Shown in pieces: positions 3,389 through 45,262 of a stretch of DNA of 64,000 nt (position 1 is the first letter of the stretch; every line of letters begins with the position of its first letter). A program made the position numbers and the translations under genes. A model generated the notes under the pieces. That model worked only from the letters and a program-made list of their open reading frames with translations, made no database searches and was not told the DNA's origin. This DNA comes from Bacillota bacterium (GTDB lineage: Bacteria; Bacillota; DTU065), in assembly GCA_036721855.1 (NCBI GenBank), contig DAIMKF010000008.1, positions 4,003 to 68,002 of the forward strand, given 5' to 3'.

Positions 3389-6037
3389 GGGTAAAAAAAC
3401 TTTTTGAAACTCCCCGGTAACTAAAGGCAAAAGACCTAAACTAAGAACCCAAAGCCACTGTGAAGTTGATAGAGGAACAAGACTAAAGGCTTTAGCTAGG
3501 GTGGGGATAAACAACACCGGCAATAAAAGTAAGATAGATCCCAAAATTGCTAAGAGCATGACTTTATTGCTAAAAAGACCAAGTTTAATAAGGCTGATTT
3601 GCTCGGAGCGTGATGAAAATGCTCTTAAGAGCTCGCCGTTAATTAAAGTTAAAAAAGCCATGGTACGTCCCAGAGCGAGAGAGTTAGATACCGGAGTTTT
3701 AAGACCAATATAGAAGGCTAATAGGGTGGTTGTGGTAACAACCAAAGCTTGGATAACTACTAAACGCCACAGCTTGCGATCTAGGAGAGGTTCTTTTGGA
3801 CTGCGGGGTTTTCTTTTCATGATATCACTTTCACCGGCTTCAACACCTAAAGCGAGGGCTGGAAAGGCATCTGTCAAAACATTAACCCAAAGAAGCTGAA
3901 TAGGCAAAAGCGGAACAGGCCAGCCAATCAACATAGAAATAAAGATTACCAAGACCTCAGCAAAATTGCAGGAAAGGAGGAAGTAAACAAATTTACGGAT
4001 GTTAGCATAGATAATACGGCCTTCTTTGACGGCTCCAACTATACTGGCAAAATTATCATCCATTAAAACCATATCAGCAGTTTGTTTAGCAACATCAGTA
4101 CCGGTAATGCCCATGGAAATACCAATATCAGCCTTCTTTAGGGCCATGGCATCATTTACTCCATCACCGGTCATAGCTACAATGTGACCATTGGCTTTAA
4201 GAGCGTTGACAATTCTTACTTTGTGTTCGGGAGAAACTCTGGCATAGATATGGACATTTTCAACTGCAACTTGTAGATCATCATCACTAAGTTCTGAAAG
4301 CTCTGTGCCGGTAAGAACTTTATTGTTATCAATAGCCAGACCGATCTGCCTAGCAATAGCCAAGGCAGTTTTCGGATAATCACCTGTAATCATCTTGGGA
4401 GTAATACCGGCATCTTGGCATTCTTTAATCGCTTCTTTGGCTTCTTCTCTTGGCGGATCAATCATGGCCACTAGACCTAAAAAGGTAAGAGAAGATTCGT
4501 CAAAGACATCAAGCTTATCAGGCAGTGAGGGGAGATCTTTATAAGCCAAGGCGAGTACCCTTAGTGCCGAATCAGCCAACGACTCATTGGCTTTTAGGAA
4601 GTAGTGCCTGAGATCATCGGTTACAGGTACACTTTTACCGCTAATAAGTATCTGATCTGTAACTTTAAGCATCTCATCGGGAGCACCTTTTACCAAAAGG
4701 CGATTGGTATTATGGTAATTGATTAGAGTGCTCATTCTTTTGCGATTAGAATCAAATGGCAGTTCTAAAAGCCGGGGATATTTAAGTGATAATTTTTCTT
4801 TAAATAAGTTGTTTTTGGCGGCCGCCACCATTAAGCTGCCTTCAGTAGGGTCTCCGATTATTTCATACTGGTCCTCGTTTAAGACTAATTCAGAGTCGTT
4901 ACAGAGAAGACCTGCCAGAAGAAGTTCATTTAAACCGGCATCAGTACCTTCTAAGATTTTAAACTCGCCTTCTGGGTTATAGCCATTTCCGGTAACAGCC
5001 ACAATCCCCTGAGGCAGAATCATCTTAACTACAGTCATCTGATTTTCGGTGAGAGTACCGGTTTTGTCAGAACATATAACTGTTGTAGTGCCAAGGGTTT
5101 CAACGGCAAGCAGCCTGCGAATAACAGCGTTTTTTTGGCTCATTCTGGTCATACCAAGAGCGAGCACAATGGTAACAACAGCCGGCAAACCCTCCGGAAT
5201 GGCTGCCACGGCAAGAGAAATAGCTGTCATAAATAGTTCTAAAGGGCTTTCAAGTCCTCGTAAAAGACCGGTAAGAAAGACTATCACAGAAATAATTATA
5301 ATTCCTAAACCTAGTTTCTTGCCTAAACTGTCGAGTTTAATTTGCAAAGGTGTAGGCGAGGTATCAACAGTACTTATGGCTGAGGCAATTTTACCGACCT
5401 CAGTCTTCATACCGGTAAAGACAACGGCACCAAAACCTCGGCCATAGGTAACAATAGTACTCATATAAGCCATGTTTTTTCGATCGGCTAGCTGAGTTTT
5501 ATCATCACCGATAAAACCAGCATCTTTTACTGAAGCAACAGATTCTCCTGTTAGAGCAGCTTCTTGAATCTCTAGATTTGTTGTTTCTAACAATCTAAGA
5601 TCAGCAGGAACGCTGTCTCCTGTTTCTAAGATAACAATATCTCCGGGTACAAGTTCTTTTGCACTTAAGTATTCACGTTTACCATTTCTGAGAACTTTAG
5701 CTTTAGGAGCACTCATTTGGGCCAATGCCTCTAGAGCTTTGTCAGCTTTATTTTCTTGCAAAAGGCCAAAGATAGCATTGATAACTACAATCATAATAAT
5801 AAGCAAAGCATCTAGTACCTCTCCCATTAGGGCGGAGATTAGAGCCGATGCCAGGAGAATAACAATCAAAAAATCACTGAATTGAGCGAGAATCTTTTCC
5901 CAAAGACTACGCCCTTTTTTTTCAGCTAACGCGTTAAAACCATATTTTTTGCGTCTTTCATTAGCCTCTTCTGCTTGCAGACCGTTTAGGTCGGTGTTTA
6001 GTTTTTTAAGGGCTTCTTCTTTGCTTAAGCGATACAC
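3374..6037 (-). CDS. P-type cation-transporting ATPase (Ca2+/Mn2+ PMR1/SERCA-like, type IIA)
   Basis: DKTGTLT phosphorylation motif, TGES, MITGD and GDGVNDA motifs, 10-TM architecture. The true start is probably the GTG at 6037 (or TTG at 6040) after the AAAGGAGAG RBS. The track start at 6085 lies inside the riboswitch terminator. Confidence 0.9.
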   Translation of the reverse strand: MYRLSKEEALKKLNTDLNGLQAEEANERRKKYGFNALAEKKGRSLWEKILAQFSDFLIVILLASALISALMGEVLDALLIIMIVVINAIFGLLQENKADKALEALAQMSAPKAKVLRNGKREYLSAKELVPGDIVILETGDSVPADLRLLETTNLEIQEAALTGESVASVKDAGFIGDDKTQLADRKNMAYMSTIVTYGRGFGAVVFTGMKTEVGKIASAISTVDTSPTPLQIKLDSLGKKLGLGIIIISVIVFLTGLLRGLESPLELFMTAISLAVAAIPEGLPAVVTIVLALGMTRMSQKNAVIRRLLAVETLGTTTVICSDKTGTLTENQMTVVKMILPQGIVAVTGNGYNPEGEFKILEGTDAGLNELLLAGLLCNDSELVLNEDQYEIIGDPTEGSLMVAAAKNNLFKEKLSLKYPRLLELPFDSNRKRMSTLINYHNTNRLLVKGAPDEMLKVTDQILISGKSVPVTDDLRHYFLKANESLADSALRVLALAYKDLPSLPDKLDVFDESSLTFLGLVAMIDPPREEAKEAIKECQDAGITPKMITGDYPKTALAIARQIGLAIDNNKVLTGTELSELSDDDLQVAVENVHIYARVSPEHKVRIVNALKANGHIVAMTGDGVNDAMALKKADIGISMGITGTDVAKQTADMVLMDDNFASIVGAVKEGRIIYANIRKFVYFLLSCNFAEVLVIFISMLIGWPVPLLPIQLLWVNVLTDAFPALALGVEAGESDIMKRKPRSPKEPLLDRKLWRLVVIQALVVTTTTLLAFYIGLKTPVSNSLALGRTMAFLTLINGELLRAFSSRSEQISLIKLGLFSNKVMLLAILGSILLLLPVLFIPTLAKAFSLVPLSTSQWLWVLSLGLLPLVTGEFQKVFLPKEAA

Positions 6038-24463: not shown

Positions 24464-25075
24464 TCATATTAAAAATGAGGCTAACAACTGCAAGACAAAC
24501 GGGACAAACATTGAAAGGACAGCTCCGGAAATAAAAGCAGCTAGTGCTGTTTTAGGACCTGCGACTTTTAAGATAACAGGCAGAGTACTATCCATTGTAG
24601 TTGCTCCACCGGCAGCAAAGGTTAGTGGCTTTATTCCTCCTTTTTCCAAGTTGCTTTTGGCCAATAGAGGTGCCAGAAAAAAGGTGCCTAATTCACGGAA
24701 AAGATTAGTCAAAAAGGCAACTGTTCCTAGTTCCGGTGAAACCAGTTTGCCAAGGAGTGGACCGGAGAGGCTATACCAGCCAAAAGCTGAGGCACAAGTT
24801 AAGCTAGGCAGCCAACCGAGCGGTAAAAATAGACCGGCAAAAAGTGCGCCGGATAAAGAACCTACACCGATCAGCATAGGATAGATAAGCAGAGAAAAAC
24901 CTTCCTTTTTAATCTGTTTAAAAAGCTCTCTATCTTGTCCAAAATCAAAACCGACAAAAAACATCATTAGTAGCAGAGAGATTGTCACTAAATGGTCTAT
25001 GGTATAACTAAAATCAGGATAGATATAACCAAATAAGATCCCCAAAAGCACAGTAATAATTATTTTAATTGTCAT
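24464..25075 (-). CDS. LysO-family (DUF340) membrane protein, large subunit
   Basis: 203-aa polytopic ORF overlapping the upstream 91-aa DUF340-like ORF by 11 nt. This is the usual two-gene arrangement. Confidence 0.65.
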   Translation of the reverse strand: MTIKIIITVLLGILFGYIYPDFSYTIDHLVTISLLLMMFFVGFDFGQDRELFKQIKKEGFSLLIYPMLIGVGSLSGALFAGLFLPLGWLPSLTCASAFGWYSLSGPLLGKLVSPELGTVAFLTNLFRELGTFFLAPLLAKSNLEKGGIKPLTFAAGGATTMDSTLPVILKVAGPKTALAAFISGAVLSMFVPFVLQLLASFLI

Positions 25076-25340
25076 TTAGATCCCTCCTAAGGAGGTAGAG
25101 CTTAACTGCTAAAAGGCTACCGGCAACTGTAGCTACACAAAGGATGAAAGCTTGGATTCCCAAGGATTTAAGCATGTGAAGAAGTTCCTTGTTGGCGCCA
25201 ATACCATATCCTAGTGAAAAAAGCATAAGTAAAAGAATCCCCCAAGAGATGCGACTAGTATCTTTCTTTGGTAACTTAAAAATATTACCGGCCAGGAAAC
25301 CAAGACCAAGAAAGAGAAAACAAAGCAGCAAAAAATGCAT
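25065..25340 (-). CDS. LysO-family (DUF340) membrane protein, small subunit
   Basis: 91 aa with three TM segments, GGTGGTGA RBS. Confidence 0.6.
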   Translation of the reverse strand: MHFLLLCFLFLGLGFLAGNIFKLPKKDTSRISWGILLLMLFSLGYGIGANKELLHMLKSLGIQAFILCVATVAGSLLAVKLYLLRRDLNDN

Positions 25341-25847
25341 CGAGTTTCACCACCATTATTAGTTACTCTTAAAATAACAGTCTTGTACTTTTAAGAGCCA
25401 GGTTTTTACTTACCTTTGGAATTAGTTGAGATAGCATTCTACAGATCAAACATATTTAACATTCAAGGTTTGAATCCTCCAAGAATAAATACAACCAGCA
25501 AAAAACCAGGATATTATTACTGGAGATGGCTTTAGCTCAAACTAAAATTTTTCTAAGGTGCCGTAAGCTTTCAGAGAATTCACTTTCTGTTAAATCCATG
25601 GTAAGTCTTCTATCGAGTTACTGGAGATTCCAGCCTTTAGAAGTGGGGATATATTTAGCAAAGCATTACTAAAGTAATTACGTAGTTCTAAGTACTCCGG
25701 ATACCAATATTAATCGCAATTTACCGGAATGTTAAAAATAATTTGAACATATAGTAGCAAAACTCTAACTTTTAATAGTTTAACTCACTTTTTATGGTGG
25801 TATATTAAAACAGCATAATAATTTATTTACAAAGAGAGGGAACTAAG

Positions 25848-27265: not shown

Positions 27266-27318
27266 TGGTTGTAAACGTTAAAATATATTTTAGCTAACTC
27301 AAGGTGAGGGGAATAATA

Positions 27319-28104
27319 ATGGAGCTGCCTAAAAATTATCTACGTAAGCTTTGGCGTGCTGCAATGGAATTTGAAATGTTGTTTTCAAAGGATAAAGTTT
27401 TAGTAGGACTTTCAGGAGGCAAAGATAGTCTGTTTTTACTTTACGCTCTAAAAGTAATGCAGTTGCATTCTCCATTTCCTTTTGAATTAGCAGCAGCTAC
27501 TATTGACTTGGGTTTTAGTGATCTAGATGCAAACTATCTAAGAGCTTACTGTGATAGGTTAGAAGTTCCGTTCTTCTTGGAAAGAACAGCTATCAGTAAC
27601 CTAGTTATAGAGACTGCACCGGACAATCCTTGCAGTAAATGTGCCTTTTTTAGAAGAGGGGCCTTGCTTACAATTTGTCAAAAAGAGGGTTATAATGTTT
27701 TAGCTCTTGCCCATCACCAAGATGATGCAATTGAAACCTTTATACTCAGCCTATTATATTCGGGTCAAATAAAAACTTTTTTACCTAGGACTAACCTTGG
27801 TCGTAGTGGGGTCAGGGTAATTCGCCCCCTAGCTTATTTTAAAGAAGCTGAAGTTAAAGGTGCTCTTAAGTTTACCGGAGTACAGGCTATTAAAGATCCT
27901 TGTCCATATTCAGGGAGAACTCAAAGAACAAAGGTTAAAGCTCTTTTAAAAACACTTGTTAAAGAAAACCCTAATGTTTATACTCATCTTCTTTCTGCAA
28001 TGAGGGAAGGTAAAAAAATAGAATTGTGGCCCAAAACACCTAGTAAAGAAGAGATGCACAGACGATATAAAACATTTTTAGGCAACGTTGACACTTTAAT
28101 GTAA
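27319..28104 (+). CDS. PP-loop ATPase, TtcA-like tRNA thiolation enzyme
   Basis: SGGKDS PP-loop and PCSKCAFFRRG motif. ATG 27319 follows AGGTGAGGGG. Confidence 0.8.
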   Translation: MELPKNYLRKLWRAAMEFEMLFSKDKVLVGLSGGKDSLFLLYALKVMQLHSPFPFELAAATIDLGFSDLDANYLRAYCDRLEVPFFLERTAISNLVIETAPDNPCSKCAFFRRGALLTICQKEGYNVLALAHHQDDAIETFILSLLYSGQIKTFLPRTNLGRSGVRVIRPLAYFKEAEVKGALKFTGVQAIKDPCPYSGRTQRTKVKALLKTLVKENPNVYTHLLSAMREGKKIELWPKTPSKEEMHRRYKTFLGNVDTLM

Positions 28105-28116
28105 ATATTATAAAAT
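28088..28116 (+). promoter_or_regulatory. sigma-A-type promoter
   Basis: TTGACA (28088-28093), 17-nt spacer, TAAAAT (28111-28116). Lies within the last codons of the upstream gene. Confidence 0.6.
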
Positions 28117-28137
28117 GAAAATATAGTGACTACAGTG

Positions 28138-28210
28138 GTTCCTCGTATAATCCTAGGGATATGGCTTGGGAGTATCTACCAGATAGCCGAAAACTATCTG
28201 ACTATGAGGG
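28138..28210 (+). promoter_or_regulatory. purine riboswitch aptamer, guanine-type (C at the ligand-specifying position)
   Basis: CCTCGTATAATCCTAGGGATATGGCTTGGGAGTATCTACCAGATAGCCGAAAACTATCTGACTATGAGG. P1 pairs CCTCGTA with TATGAGG, P2 TCCTAGG with CTTGGGA, P3 CAGATAG with CTATCTG. Conserved UAUAAU, GAUAUGG and UCUACC blocks are present, and the C74-equivalent is C28201. Confidence 0.85.
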
Positions 28211-28373
28211 AGCGGCACTCGAGTCTGTCTACCTACCCACTTACAGTATACGGGACTGCCAACCCGGTTAAAGACTGTAAGAGTTCAGACCGGGTGGTTT
28301 CTCCACTCATTATTCGAGGAGGACGGAACCATCAGGGAGGTGGGCATTAACAGTAGTCGCAATGAGAGGAAAA

Positions 28374-28402
28374 ACTGCAGGTCAAATAACCTGCAGTTTT
28401 TT
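28374..28402 (+). terminator. intrinsic terminator
   Basis: ACTGCAGGT-caaata-ACCTGCAGT (9 bp) followed by TTTTTT. Confidence 0.8.
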
Positions 28403-28549
28403 ATTTCATATTAAAATATTAAAAATTGTTAGTTTATGTAGGAAGGATACACTTATTATTAGTGGATTTTGAATGAGGAAGGAATTTATTATAGGCTGTC
28501 TAAGTACTAATTAAAGGTACTAAACAGTTTTTTAGGGGGGGAGTGTACA

Positions 28550-29869
28550 ATGACACAAGGAAGAATAAAAACTATGAAAAAGAGTAGCTATTGGTTTTTT
28601 CTCTTAGTTTTTCTCCTGTTATTTGGATCTGTGGTGGCTTCTGCAGTAGAATTAAGGGTTTGGATGGTAGGGGTCAGTAACGAGCAAGTAAAGATAATCA
28701 ATGATATTCTTGATGCGGATTTTACTCCCAAAACCGGTATTAAAGCTCGGATCGAACAACTGCCTTGGTCGGGATCTGACAATAGGATGTTACTGGCTGC
28801 TGCCTCGGGAGATACTCCTGATGTTGCTTTGATGAGTGGTCTTTTAGCAGCAGAGATGGGTATTCGCGGAGCAATGGTGGATTTAAAACAGGATTTTGGC
28901 GCGGACTTTAACAACCACATTAAGGATACTTTTCCAAATGCCTTTAGGACCTACGAATTTATGGGGGCAGTTTTTGGGGTACCATTTCAAATGGCAGTAT
29001 CCCCAATGGTCTATCGCCATGATATTTTAAAGGATTTAGGACTTGTCAAACCAGAGACTTGGGATGATATCCGCACCATGATTCCAAAGCTACAAGCTAA
29101 TCAGATGAATTTTGCTTTAGCTTATGGAATCGAAGCGGAATCTTTCAGAGATTTCCAGATGTTTCTCTGGCAAAATGGTGGCGATATGTACAGTCAGGAT
29201 CGTACTAAATCTGCTTGGGATACACCTCAATCGTTAAAGGCTTTCAAAGAATATACAGATTTATACAGAACTTACAAAATTCCTCAGGCACCTCAACATT
29301 TCGAATCATTCCGTCGCGGTGAATTACCAGTGGCTTGCATTCCTTGGTGGACATATGCCAACTATTCGATGGGTTTGCCCGAACTGGTTGGAAAATTTAG
29401 TTTATCGGTTGTTCCGGGGACAAAACGTGATGGTAAAATCTACCATACAAACTGGGCAGCCGGAACACCTCTGGCCATGTTTAAAAACACTAAGCATAAA
29501 AAAGAAGCCTGGACATTTATGAAATTTATGACTAGCGTTGATTTCCAAAAGCAGTATACCAAACTAATCTCTGAGAGAATCCCAGGCTCTATATACCTAC
29601 CATCTACCAGAAGTGCTTATTCTTATATGCCAATTCCAGAACAGCATCGGCAGGTATTTTTACAACAGGCTAACTATTCTATGACTCCACCGTTTGCTAT
29701 TGCCTCTGAAATGGTTGTAAACAGGTATATTGAATTTGCAATTAACAAAGTTGTAGTTCAGAAACTAAATACAGAAGAAGCTCTTCTAGAAGCAGCCAAA
29801 CAAATGAATAGTGATTTAAGAACCAGAATCGCAGATTATAACCGTTTCATTAAGAAGTACCAGAAATAA
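28550..29869 (+). CDS. ABC-type extracellular solute-binding protein (family 1), orphan paralog of 22896-24179
   Basis: Signal peptide ending ASA-VE. The shared N-terminal block DFTPKTGIK and the GDTPDV motif are also in the other SBP. No transporter partners adjacent. Confidence 0.75.
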   Translation: MTQGRIKTMKKSSYWFFLLVFLLLFGSVVASAVELRVWMVGVSNEQVKIINDILDADFTPKTGIKARIEQLPWSGSDNRMLLAAASGDTPDVALMSGLLAAEMGIRGAMVDLKQDFGADFNNHIKDTFPNAFRTYEFMGAVFGVPFQMAVSPMVYRHDILKDLGLVKPETWDDIRTMIPKLQANQMNFALAYGIEAESFRDFQMFLWQNGGDMYSQDRTKSAWDTPQSLKAFKEYTDLYRTYKIPQAPQHFESFRRGELPVACIPWWTYANYSMGLPELVGKFSLSVVPGTKRDGKIYHTNWAAGTPLAMFKNTKHKKEAWTFMKFMTSVDFQKQYTKLISERIPGSIYLPSTRSAYSYMPIPEQHRQVFLQQANYSMTPPFAIASEMVVNRYIEFAINKVVVQKLNTEEALLEAAKQMNSDLRTRIADYNRFIKKYQK

Positions 29870-30005
29870 ACGAAAAAAGAGAGGTCACCACAATATTTGT
29901 TAGGTGGCCTTTCTTTTATGTTTAAAATGTTTGTGTTAATATATAACATAAGGGGATAGGTAAAAAAGCTTAGTAGCTTTAATTGGTAGACAGGAGCTGA
30001 AAAGA

Positions 30006-30869
30006 ATGGCAACTAAAGAGCAAAAAGTTAAATCGGTGCTTTCTGTCTACCGCGAAAGAGATCCTCTTTATGGGTTTAGATATGTTGCCGATCCTTATGT
30101 TGGGTGTTCACATCAATGTCTGTTTTGCATATCTCCAAAACGTGAAGAAAACAAAGATGATATTCAAGTAAAGATAAACGCTGCAGAGGTTCTCTCGAGG
30201 CAACTTGTTAAAAAACAACGCGAAATTGTCGGCCTTGGACAAGGTTGCGATCCGTACATGCTTTTAGAAAAACATTATTTGATAACCCATGATATTCTCC
30301 AAGTCTTAGCAGTGCAAGGCTTTCCTGTGCATATAGTAACAAAAAGTAATATGGTACAAAGAGACCGTAAACTTTTACAGGAAATTCAAGAAAAGACAAT
30401 GGCTACGGTTACCTTCCAATTTGGTGCACCTTCCCTGGAACTGGCAAAAAACTTAGAACCAAATGCACCCTCACCCATTAAGCGCTTTAATGCTTTACAT
30501 AATCTAGCAACAAAAGGAATTAACTGTGGTATTGCTTTATATCCGATTTTGCCCTTTATAAGTGAATGGGGGCAGGGAATAAAACAATTGATCTTGGCAG
30601 CTAAAGAATCGGGTGCCAGCTATGTTTTAGCTGCACCTCTTACGACAAATACCAAATCCAGCAAAAAAAAATTTCTTACTTATCTAGAACAATATTACCC
30701 AGCATTACTGGATTCTTATCGTGATCTATATGGCAGAAAAGGCAAGGTGCCAGACTCTTATTGGCAACCGATAGATGAAATGATCAAAACCCTGACATAT
30801 GAACAGGGTATGGCCTATGAGCCACCATTTTGGTCTGAATTGCAAAAGAAACAACTTTCACTGTTTTAA
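30006..30869 (+). CDS. radical SAM protein, SplB/DNA-photolyase-like family
   Basis: CSHQCLFC (CxxxCxxC) near the N-terminus; 287 aa. Confidence 0.7.
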   Translation: MATKEQKVKSVLSVYRERDPLYGFRYVADPYVGCSHQCLFCISPKREENKDDIQVKINAAEVLSRQLVKKQREIVGLGQGCDPYMLLEKHYLITHDILQVLAVQGFPVHIVTKSNMVQRDRKLLQEIQEKTMATVTFQFGAPSLELAKNLEPNAPSPIKRFNALHNLATKGINCGIALYPILPFISEWGQGIKQLILAAKESGASYVLAAPLTTNTKSSKKKFLTYLEQYYPALLDSYRDLYGRKGKVPDSYWQPIDEMIKTLTYEQGMAYEPPFWSELQKKQLSLF

Positions 30870-44900: not shown

Positions 44901-45262
44901 GGGGGCGATTTGGCTTCGACGGGAAGTTACGATGGTAGTCGCAGCGAGCCGAGTTTTCCGCAAGCTCGTTAAAAAGGCGGAAGCGTTTATAAACGCCGAT
45001 AATAATTTAGCTTACGCTGCTTAATTAAAAGCAGCTGTCCTTAGATAGTTTATCTGTGGCTATCTAAAGGGCATCAAATTAACAGGTTGCCGTTTAGCCA
45101 TTACCTGTGGGCGAAGACGAAAGATTTTTACAGGTGTAGTGACAAAGGAGCCTGTCTGGTGGCGTTCTTTGAAGCGAAAATAATTAAGTAGCCAGACTAT
45201 GCTCGTAGACGGGACTATGGTCGTCTTTTCGGACGTGGGTTCGACACCCACCGCCTCCACCA
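44901..45262 (+). ncRNA. ssrA: tmRNA (SsrA)
   Basis: The 5' GGGGGCG pairs with the 3' CGCCTCC (G3:U wobble), followed by ACCA. T-arm GGGTTCGACACCC. Tag reading frame 44995-45024 is GCC GAT AAT AAT TTA GCT TAC GCT GCT TAA = ADNNLAYAA*. Directly downstream of smpB. Confidence 0.9.

Follow-up and report, generated by a model that had tools for sequence, protein, structure and literature searches.

Within a 64,000-nucleotide (nt) stretch of a Bacillota genome of the DTU065 lineage (contig DAIMKF010000008.1, positions 4,003 to 68,002; hereafter the window, to which all coordinates refer), a canonical guanine-type purine aptamer is followed by a second conserved structured domain, which we call domain 2. 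Both domains are enclosed by a clamp helix, P0, and are framed by a promoter and an intrinsic terminator on the + strand. From these landmarks, the unit is predicted to be a discrete structured RNA of about 280 nt, spanning roughly positions 28123-28402. Its parts are conserved in all homologues that we compared, the helices P0, S and PA covary, and the unit holds neither a conserved open reading frame (ORF) nor a conserved antiterminator. The conserved two-domain RNA is real and represents a variant on the guanine riboswitch theme, which would most likely act as a stand-alone guanine-responsive non-coding RNA (ncRNA). We assign a probability of about 0.45 to the reading that this ncRNA, which would also be the 3' untranslated region (UTR) of the upstream operon, uses domain 2 as a platform or effector that is toggled by an exchange of strands between the aptamer helix P1 and the hairpin PB. 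Both the ligand-driven strand exchange and an output in trans or on the RNA itself are what we infer for its mode of action.

The features of the unit and of the gene preceding it are as follows:

27304-28104, + strand: ORF for a TtcA-family PP-loop ATPase (Pfam PF01171; NCBIfam TtcA 158 bits, under the cutoff)
28088-28116, + strand: sigma-70-type promoter TTGACA-17-TAAAAT, 11 of 12 consensus positions matched
28126-28133, + strand: 5' strand of the clamp helix P0 (GUGACUAC), 2-4 nt from the predicted 5' end
28139-28211, + strand: guanine-type purine aptamer (RF00167) with P1 at 28139-47/28203-11, P2 at 28151-57/28165-71, P3 at 28180-86/28194-28200 and C74 at 28202
28216-28227, + strand: 5' strand of stem S (CACUCG-A-GUCUG), beginning 5 nt past P1
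28228-28238, + strand: C-rich 5' strand of P1' (UCUACCU-A-CCC), ACCUACC invariant
28240-28281, + strand: hairpin PA, helix 28240-47/28274-81, 3 pairs changed on both sides
28286-28296, + strand: 3' strand of stem S (CAGAC-CGGGUG), CAGAC invariant
28297-28329, + strand: hairpin PB, 28297-28304 with 28321-29; 5' strand GUUUCUCC invariant, 3' strand GGA-C-GGAAC, loop length variable
28335-28345, + strand: G-rich 3' strand of P1' (GGG-AGGUGGGC), GGUGG invariant; P1' crosses stem S
28353-28360, + strand: 3' strand of P0 (GUAGUCGC), pairing with 28126-33
28361-28372, + strand: linker from P0 to the terminator, varying in sequence and length (about 10-25 nt) across homologues
28369-28402, + strand: intrinsic terminator with a 14-bp stem and a U-tract; core CUGCAGG/CCUGCAG invariant, loop variable

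Structure and conservation of the two-domain RNA

Eight distinct versions of the RNA, 284-298 nt in length and coming from seven lineages, were available for comparison: the window and the homologues labelled L001, L017, L027, L012, L014, L022 and L023. They were collected from the neighbourhoods of homologues of the downstream gene coding for a solute-binding protein (SBP), from the neighbourhoods of homologues of the TtcA-like gene and by two exact-pattern scans, and they represent eight sequences of one narrow clade. Promoter, aptamer, the entire domain 2 and terminator are present in all eight versions. The TtcA-like proteins of the RNA carriers are 67-83% identical to the window protein, and in the next relative, L026, with a TtcA-like protein that is 63% identical, the RNA is missing within 208 nt downstream of the gene. 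Domain 2 has an identity to the window of 0.69-0.88, compared with 0.36-0.72 at the third codon positions of the adjacent gene, and the DNA past the terminator diverges much faster than the RNA, which indicates that the whole unit is under purifying selection.

An exact-pattern scan of 185,579 species genomes returned three metagenome-assembled genomes (MAGs), and a scan of the metagenomes of the Joint Genome Institute (JGI), with a pattern anchored on the guanine aptamer, returned three true loci and one false positive. There was no match in viral contigs by exact-pattern scan, none in plasmids and phages by blastn, and a second copy of the RNA was not found within the window. All carriers are uncultured Bacillota known from metagenomes or MAGs, such as the taxonomically unclassified 'Firmicutes bacterium UBA4881'. 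Exact-pattern scans are blind to distant relatives, and distant or singlet copies of domain 2 could escape them; within the scans made, the layout appears to occur only in a small uncultured Bacillota clade. At the start of one contig (L018 1-310, DUTE01000407.1), we observed an inverted duplication of the RNA locus, in which domain 2 comes first on the + strand and then again as the reverse complement, together with the aptamer, on the - strand; the arrangement looks like an assembly artefact.

By every test that we ran, the first domain belongs to family RF00167, and it is predicted to bind guanine. The family model matches positions 28123-28224 with 78.7 bits (gathering score 37) and the homologues with 77.9-84.3 bits. 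The P1-P2-P3 three-way junction has the canonical junction and loop nucleotides, which are conserved, and in P2 and P3 three pairs each are changed on both sides. A cytosine at position 74 gives specificity for guanine, hypoxanthine and xanthine; this residue, C74 of GACUA, is located at 28202 and is the same in all eight homologues. A preliminary description of the window, made from its letters alone, had recognised the canonical aptamer correctly and had placed the specificity cytosine one position off, at 28201. P1 is invariant except for a single U-A to U-G change, whereas P0, P2, P3, S and PA all vary, which fits an additional sequence constraint on P1.

The same description had reported a spacer of about 160 nt with its own potential for structure between aptamer and terminator. 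This segment is indeed present, with about 150 nt, and folds with a z-score against shuffled sequences of -3.97 when 28211-28365 is taken alone, and of -7.84 for the whole unit. To score pairs we used a manual structural alignment (A5) that was fitted by hand to the model, and the pair counts therefore lean towards the model. Over the whole structure, 18 pairs are changed on both sides, compared with 6.4±1.8 in column shuffles (0 of 500 reach 18) and 1-3 in slid controls. The check that had been proposed, to look for covariation of the spacer in relatives, thus found a conserved segment with covarying pairs in P0 (four), S (four) and PA (three). Domain 2 measures about 135 nt and is made up of stem S, the hairpins PA and PB and the two strands of P1'. 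Its blocks GUCUG, ACCUACC, ACGGGNCUGCCAACCCGG, CAGAC, GUUUCUC and GGUGG are invariant in all eight versions. No Rfam family matches domain 2 at E<=10, either in the window or in L023, the most divergent homologue, and the search for families beyond RF00167 that had been suggested gave none at the same threshold for 28050-28600. Likenesses to ZTP and SAM-I motifs, noticed by eye in domain 2, are not conserved.

The helix P0 encloses the aptamer and domain 2 and is found in the minimum free energy (MFE) fold of all eight homologues as well as in the RNAalifold consensus. Its strands change from GUGACUAC/GUAGUCGC in the window to GUAGUUAUG/CAUAACUAC in L023. A competing pairing of GCGGCACU (28212-19) with AGU.AGUCGC (28352-60), which arose when domain 2 was folded alone, is unsupported in L012 and L014, where P0 is supported instead. 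Stem S comprises 11 bp (28216-21 and 28223-27 with 28286-96), and two of its compensations are independent of alignment choices, namely a C-G to U-A change in L014 and an A-U pair beside GUCUG/CAGAC in L023. It is also recovered without any alignment by RNAduplex in every lineage, with -14.5 to -15.9 kcal/mol in the window clade and about -9.3 kcal/mol in L022 and L023. Hairpin PB is paired in all lineages (94.3% of the alignment cells). The lower stem that the MFE fold adds to PB (GGUG/CAUC) occurs in the window clade only and conflicts with S; a 5-nt insertion in L027 is placed precisely between S and PB and splits this lower stem. We therefore favour S over it.

The C-rich and G-rich strands of P1' (28228-38/28335-45) are paired in 94.9% of cells, with four one-sided and no double changes, and the pairing is predicted by MFE folding and by RNAalifold. 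The closing helix CCCAC/GUGGG of the preliminary description had used the right two strands in the wrong register, as the conserved pairing is that of (G)UCUACCU-A-CCC (28227/28-38) with GGG-AGGUGGG(C) (28335-45). Nested folds that contain either S or P1' differ by a few kcal/mol in every lineage, and in these models S and P1' would either form a pseudoknot or represent alternative states. The 8-bp helix 28240-47/28274-81, also described before, is the covarying helix of PA, which carries an apical hairpin, CGGG-[A/U]CUGCCAA-CCCG (28251-66), that is invariant in all eight versions; its loop is NCUGCCAA. The pseudoknot that had been proposed between ACCCGGU and ACCGGGU (28262-68/28289-95) exists in the window and did not survive the comparison: the pairing is disrupted in L014, L022 and L023 with no compensation, none of its pairs is compensatory, and five of the seven depart only by unpaired cells.

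Promoter, terminator and genomic neighbourhood

The TtcA-family gene is the direct upstream neighbour of the RNA in all seven RNA-bearing lineages, and the -35 box of the RNA promoter (28088-93) sits within its last codons (..N V D T L M stop; stop at 28104). The DNA of this hexamer is conserved across the RNA-bearing lineages despite diverging protein C-termini, TTGACA together with the -10 box is kept in all eight RNA variants, with equivalent promoters in L022 and L023, and both boxes are missing in the RNA-free L026. The promoter had been pointed out at the same positions before, and transcription would start at about 28122-28124. Downstream of the stop codon at 28104, the first terminator-like site on this strand is at 28369. 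The upstream operon must therefore end at this terminator (28369-28402) as well, which makes the RNA its 3' UTR too.

The terminator had been delimited as 28374-28402 and is confirmed here with the slightly wider limits 28369-28402; it is the sole terminator-like site on this strand, and the base of its stem shows one compensatory A-U to G-C change. In agreement with the earlier statement that no segment is able to compete with the terminator arms, prefix and constrained folds, with the aptamer strands either free or blocked, revealed no conserved upstream partner for the terminator 5' arm. We therefore read the terminator as unregulated, and termination at 28402 is modelled as constitutive. 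A terminator that competes with an antiterminator formed by the P1 3' strand, as in a classical transcriptional riboswitch, was not found. Two candidates were rejected: an antiterminator pairing of the terminator 5' arm with 28130-36, which is seen only in the window and the L001 type, and a complementarity between the PA 5' strand and the terminator (CUUGCAGU/ACUGCAGG), which is not conserved.

The unit also deserves its earlier description as ORF-less. A 74-aa ORF (28126-28350) is interrupted by an in-frame stop in L001 and by frameshifts in L012 and L014, short ORFs starting from a conserved GUG at 28340 range from 2 to 24 codons and change frame from lineage to lineage, and none of the ORFs within the unit is conserved among the eight homologues.

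The gene that follows the RNA differs between lineages. It codes for the SBP in five of them and for a radical SAM protein in two, L022 and L023, where the latter is of the Rv2578c/PA0069 type and 66-67% identical to the product of window 30006-30869. The 'orphan' SBP gene that had been named as the next gene is therefore a lineage-specific neighbour and is not found at this place in L022 and L023, in which the radical SAM gene directly follows. In these two, an SBP homologue lies upstream of the TtcA-like gene, and in L023 upstream of the rubredoxin gene too. The shifted position of the SBP gene (window 28550-29869, L022 3391-4674, L023 2266-3549) relative to the block of TtcA-like gene, RNA and radical SAM gene amounts to a local rearrangement. 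Upstream of SBP homologues at 50-73% identity in other genomes, we found no purine riboswitch. Since such homologues occur without the RNA, and L022 and L023 carry theirs at another position, the SBP gene is not a conserved partner of the RNA, and a functional link between the two was rejected. A consistent regulated downstream gene, as expected of a classical cis riboswitch, is not present.

In the interval from the RNA terminator to the next gene, a simple scan revealed no sigma-70 promoter of consensus type, and the next start codon is located about 110-150 nt past the terminator. Upstream of the radical SAM gene, an element TRTG-n-TAA(T/G)AT (window 29925-29945) is conserved in the window, L022 and L023 and resembles an extended -10 box. 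The block upstream of the SBP gene (window 28440-28549; GAAGGAATTTAT...TGTCTAA) is likewise conserved; TGTCTAA is also present upstream of an SBP homologue in an RNA-free genome (L003, about 3880-3895) and could serve as a regulator site or as a promoter of unusual type. Near an SBP homologue on an unrelated metagenome contig, group II intron domains (RF02001, RF01998) were detected on the - strand (L007 7797-8118, L008 4476-4797).

Further away in the window, a tmRNA gene is located at 44901-45262 on the + strand (RF00023, 183.5 bits), with ADNNLAYAA as the tag peptide predicted by ARAGORN. On the - strand, at 24464-25340, two ORFs that lie side by side and encode 91 aa and 203 aa both match the LysO lysine-exporter family, and between them and the rubredoxin gene lie about 500 nt (25341-25847) that contain no ORF of at least 60 aa and no Rfam match at gathering thresholds.

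Proposed strand exchange and competing explanations

Among the readings that had been offered for this locus, that of a riboswitch-bearing small RNA (sRNA) fits best, given the RNA's own promoter, the P0 clamp, the variable linker, the absence of a conserved antiterminator and the changing downstream gene. Riboswitch aptamers as parts of ncRNAs have precedents in EutX/Rli55 and SreA/SreB (PMC5821096, PMC5449094). As PB is followed neither by a U-tract nor by a start codon, we propose that guanine switches domain 2 between folds in the free RNA. To this end, the P1 3' strand (AUGAGGGAG) would swap to the PB 5' strand and loop to form a helix X2, which would extend stem S to a nearly continuous helix of about 20 bp, while the P1 5' strand would pair instead with the PB 3' strand in a helix X1. 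Guanine would lock P1, leaving the PB strands free to form PB and allowing the P1' pairing, and the RNA would thus toggle between two global folds. The output would be the conformation of domain 2 in the free RNA and not termination before a downstream ORF. It could consist in exposing or sequestering the invariant hairpin or the purine-rich, Shine-Dalgarno-like strands GAGGAGGA and GGGAGGUGG, and the state of domain 2 could affect a partner in trans or the stability of the RNA itself.

This model draws on the pairing partners of the two P1 strands. Outside the aptamer, the P1 3' strand finds its best alternative match in the PB 5' strand with the start of the loop (CUCC-N-CUCAU) in seven of eight lineages, at -10.3 to -12.5 kcal/mol, P1 itself having about -11.3 kcal/mol; X2 is paired in 94.4% of cells. 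For the P1 5' strand, the best alternative partner is the end of the PB loop with the 3' strand (X1) in eight of eight. Folds in which X1 and X2 are enforced lie 1.4-14.5 kcal/mol above the MFE, a gap that ligand binding energy could plausibly bridge. Several observations weigh against a strand exchange in a free RNA. The strands that form X1 and X2 hardly vary, so that these two helices offer no compensatory changes, and CU-rich strands readily pair with GA-rich ones. Blocking one P1 strand usually leaves the unconstrained fold of domain 2 as it was. The 5' and 3' ends of the RNA are predicted from the sequence, as is the efficiency of the terminator, and the support comes from few sequences of a single clade in a hand-built alignment. 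The downstream genes might depend on read-through, against which only the TRTG-type element ahead of the radical SAM gene would argue. Finally, neither a trans target nor a protein partner was found, the target test covering the radical SAM leader only. In the window, CUGUCUACC (28225-33) is perfectly complementary over 9 bp to GGUAGACAG (29985-93), just upstream of the ribosome-binding site of the radical SAM gene; the match has 9 bp with one G-U in L001 and L027 and 8 of 9 in L022, and as it is not conserved in L012, L014 and L023, this leader was rejected as a target.

One might speculate that domain 2 (28216-28345) represents a new class of ligand-binding aptamer or a new effector fold, allosterically coupled to the guanine aptamer in a P0-clamped stand-alone RNA, a proposal that we regard as tentative. 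If true, it would describe a free metabolite-sensing sRNA that is switched by conformation and not by termination or translation of an adjacent gene. Another, rather unlikely explanation is a two-input tandem riboswitch, in which domain 2 is a second aptamer that, together with the guanine aptamer, sets read-through or the state of the free RNA. Domain 2 resembles an aptamer core in its invariant blocks and in its crossing, pseudoknot-capable topology, it begins 5 nt past P1, near the 5-7 nt of guanine-PRPP (phosphoribosyl pyrophosphate) tandems (PMC5912903), and one terminator follows both domains. However, neither a ykkC/PRPP-type family nor any other Rfam family matches at E<=10, the terminator lies outside domain 2, from which it is set apart by P0 and the variable linker, a conserved antiterminator is lacking, and the neighbours are not purine biosynthesis genes. 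Moreover, no singlet domain 2 was detected in exact signature scans of genomes and viral contigs or by blastn in plasmids and phages, the metagenome pattern being anchored on the aptamer. Of the earlier suggestion of a tandem with a second aptamer, the second aptamer keeps some force, as domain 2 is about as invariant as an aptamer core, and the analogy to PRPP does not, in view of the missing ykkC match, terminator overlap and purine genes. An ordinary cis-acting guanine riboswitch with an unusually long platform, controlling read-through into the SBP gene in the window or the radical SAM gene in L022 and L023, appears improbable to us. It would account for the absence of a consensus promoter ahead of a start codon that lies so close to the terminator, and the pairing of the P1 3' strand with the PB 5' strand resembles a classical switching sequence. 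Yet PB, the hairpin that alternates with P1, lacks a U-tract, and the real terminator stands beyond P0 and the variable linker, with no conserved competitor. In addition, purifying selection acts on the RNA though the downstream gene differs by lineage, SBP genes exist elsewhere without the RNA, TGTCTAA precedes an RNA-free SBP homologue as well, an extended -10-like element is conserved ahead of the radical SAM gene, and a clamp such as P0 at the extreme 5' end is unusual for an mRNA leader. We thus disfavour the suggestion that the unit is a platform for the SBP gene, of which homologues at 50-73% identity lack the RNA and which is not found at this place in two RNA lineages.

Two further explanations start from the upstream gene. 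According to the first, which we consider slightly less probable still than a long cis platform, the RNA is a cis element of the 3' UTR, whose guanine-dependent fold sets the stability of the mRNA of the upstream rubredoxin/TtcA-family operon. In line with this, the operon also ends at 28369-28402, with no terminator between 28104 and the RNA, and the RNA is found directly 3' of the TtcA-family gene in all seven lineages; against it, the conserved near-consensus internal promoter argues for independent transcription, and synteny within a narrow clade is a weak sign of a functional link. We know of no bacterial precedent for a purine riboswitch in a 3' UTR, and we have counted this against the explanation. 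The second, which seems very improbable, is that the hairpin CGGG-NCUGCCAA-CCCG mimics an anticodon stem-loop (C32 U33 GCC A37 A38) that the TtcA-family enzyme binds or modifies, with guanine gating access. The hairpin is invariant in all eight versions, the adjacent gene belongs to the TtcA family, a family of tRNA C32 2-thiolation, and EutX/Rli55 provides a precedent for a protein-binding module on a riboswitch-bearing ncRNA. But the loop has 8 nt and not 7, ARAGORN sees nothing tRNA-like here, the assignment to the TtcA family is under the NCBIfam cutoff, and the likeness was noticed after the fact and could be a coincidence.

Comparison with known systems

Nearly all known purine riboswitches are 5' leaders of purine-related genes, in which a terminator or a hairpin sequestering the Shine-Dalgarno sequence directly follows the aptamer. 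With the guanine riboswitches of the xpt-pbuX type (RF00167), the RNA described here shares the canonical aptamer, covarying P2 and P3 helices and a downstream alternative partner for the P1 3' strand. In contrast to them, this partner lies in PB, which is free of a U-tract, about 150 nt of conserved structure and P0 precede the sole terminator, and there is neither a consistently controlled ORF nor a purine gene among the neighbours.

In the guanine-PRPP tandems (ykkC subtype 2b), 5-7 nt separate the two aptamers (Sherlock et al. 2018; PMC5912903). The order of parts is the same here, with a guanine aptamer, a few nucleotides, a second conserved structured domain and then one terminator (PMC5912903). 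Our unit differs in that it has no ykkC-type domain, no overlap between terminator and domain 2 and no purine biosynthesis context, and in that P0 encloses both domains; judged by these features, it is not a guanine-PRPP tandem.

The nearest relative in the outline of its working may be EutX/Rli55, an sRNA with an adenosylcobalamin (AdoCbl) riboswitch, in which the ligand causes termination between the aptamer and a protein-binding module (PMC5821096, PMC5449094). As in EutX/Rli55, an aptamer and a second module, here a putative effector, are found on one ncRNA with its own promoter, and the output would be the availability of the module and not an adjacent ORF. Here, however, no terminator is located between 28211 and 28368, and no pair of hexaloop hairpins of the ANTAR type was seen by eye. 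With no terminator between the aptamer and domain 2, any control would be conformational.

SreA also controls its downstream operon in cis, by ligand-dependent termination (PMC5449094). The only likeness to SreA/SreB is a short aptamer-containing transcript that ends at an intrinsic terminator (PMC5449094). In the present RNA, termination appears unregulated and a conserved base-pairing target was not found, with the radical SAM leader tested. The preliminary description had likened its sRNA reading to SreA/SreB, from which the present RNA differs in that no regulated ORF follows the terminator. The layout itself is that of a type-I 3'-UTR-derived sRNA. Such sRNAs have a promoter internal to an ORF and a terminator in common with the upstream mRNA, and here, too, the upstream ORF contains the -35 box and the upstream mRNA shares the terminator. 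The type-I 3'-UTR sRNAs known to us are base-pairing RNAs of the Hfq type and carry no metabolite aptamers.

In the literature, our coverage of which is incomplete, we found no description of a purine aptamer that is enclosed together with a second domain by a helix such as P0. What appears to be new is the placement of a canonical guanine aptamer in a closed, two-domain, ORF-less RNA that has its own promoter and terminator and an unclassified domain 2. If this RNA is a free guanine-sensing regulator, the few known riboswitch-bearing sRNAs, represented by EutX/Rli55 and SreA/B, would gain purines as a ligand and purely conformational control as a mode of action; if domain 2 instead binds a second ligand, a new aptamer class and a new tandem architecture would be added to those known. 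Either way, the covarying helices P0, S and PA provide a concrete structure model that can be tested.

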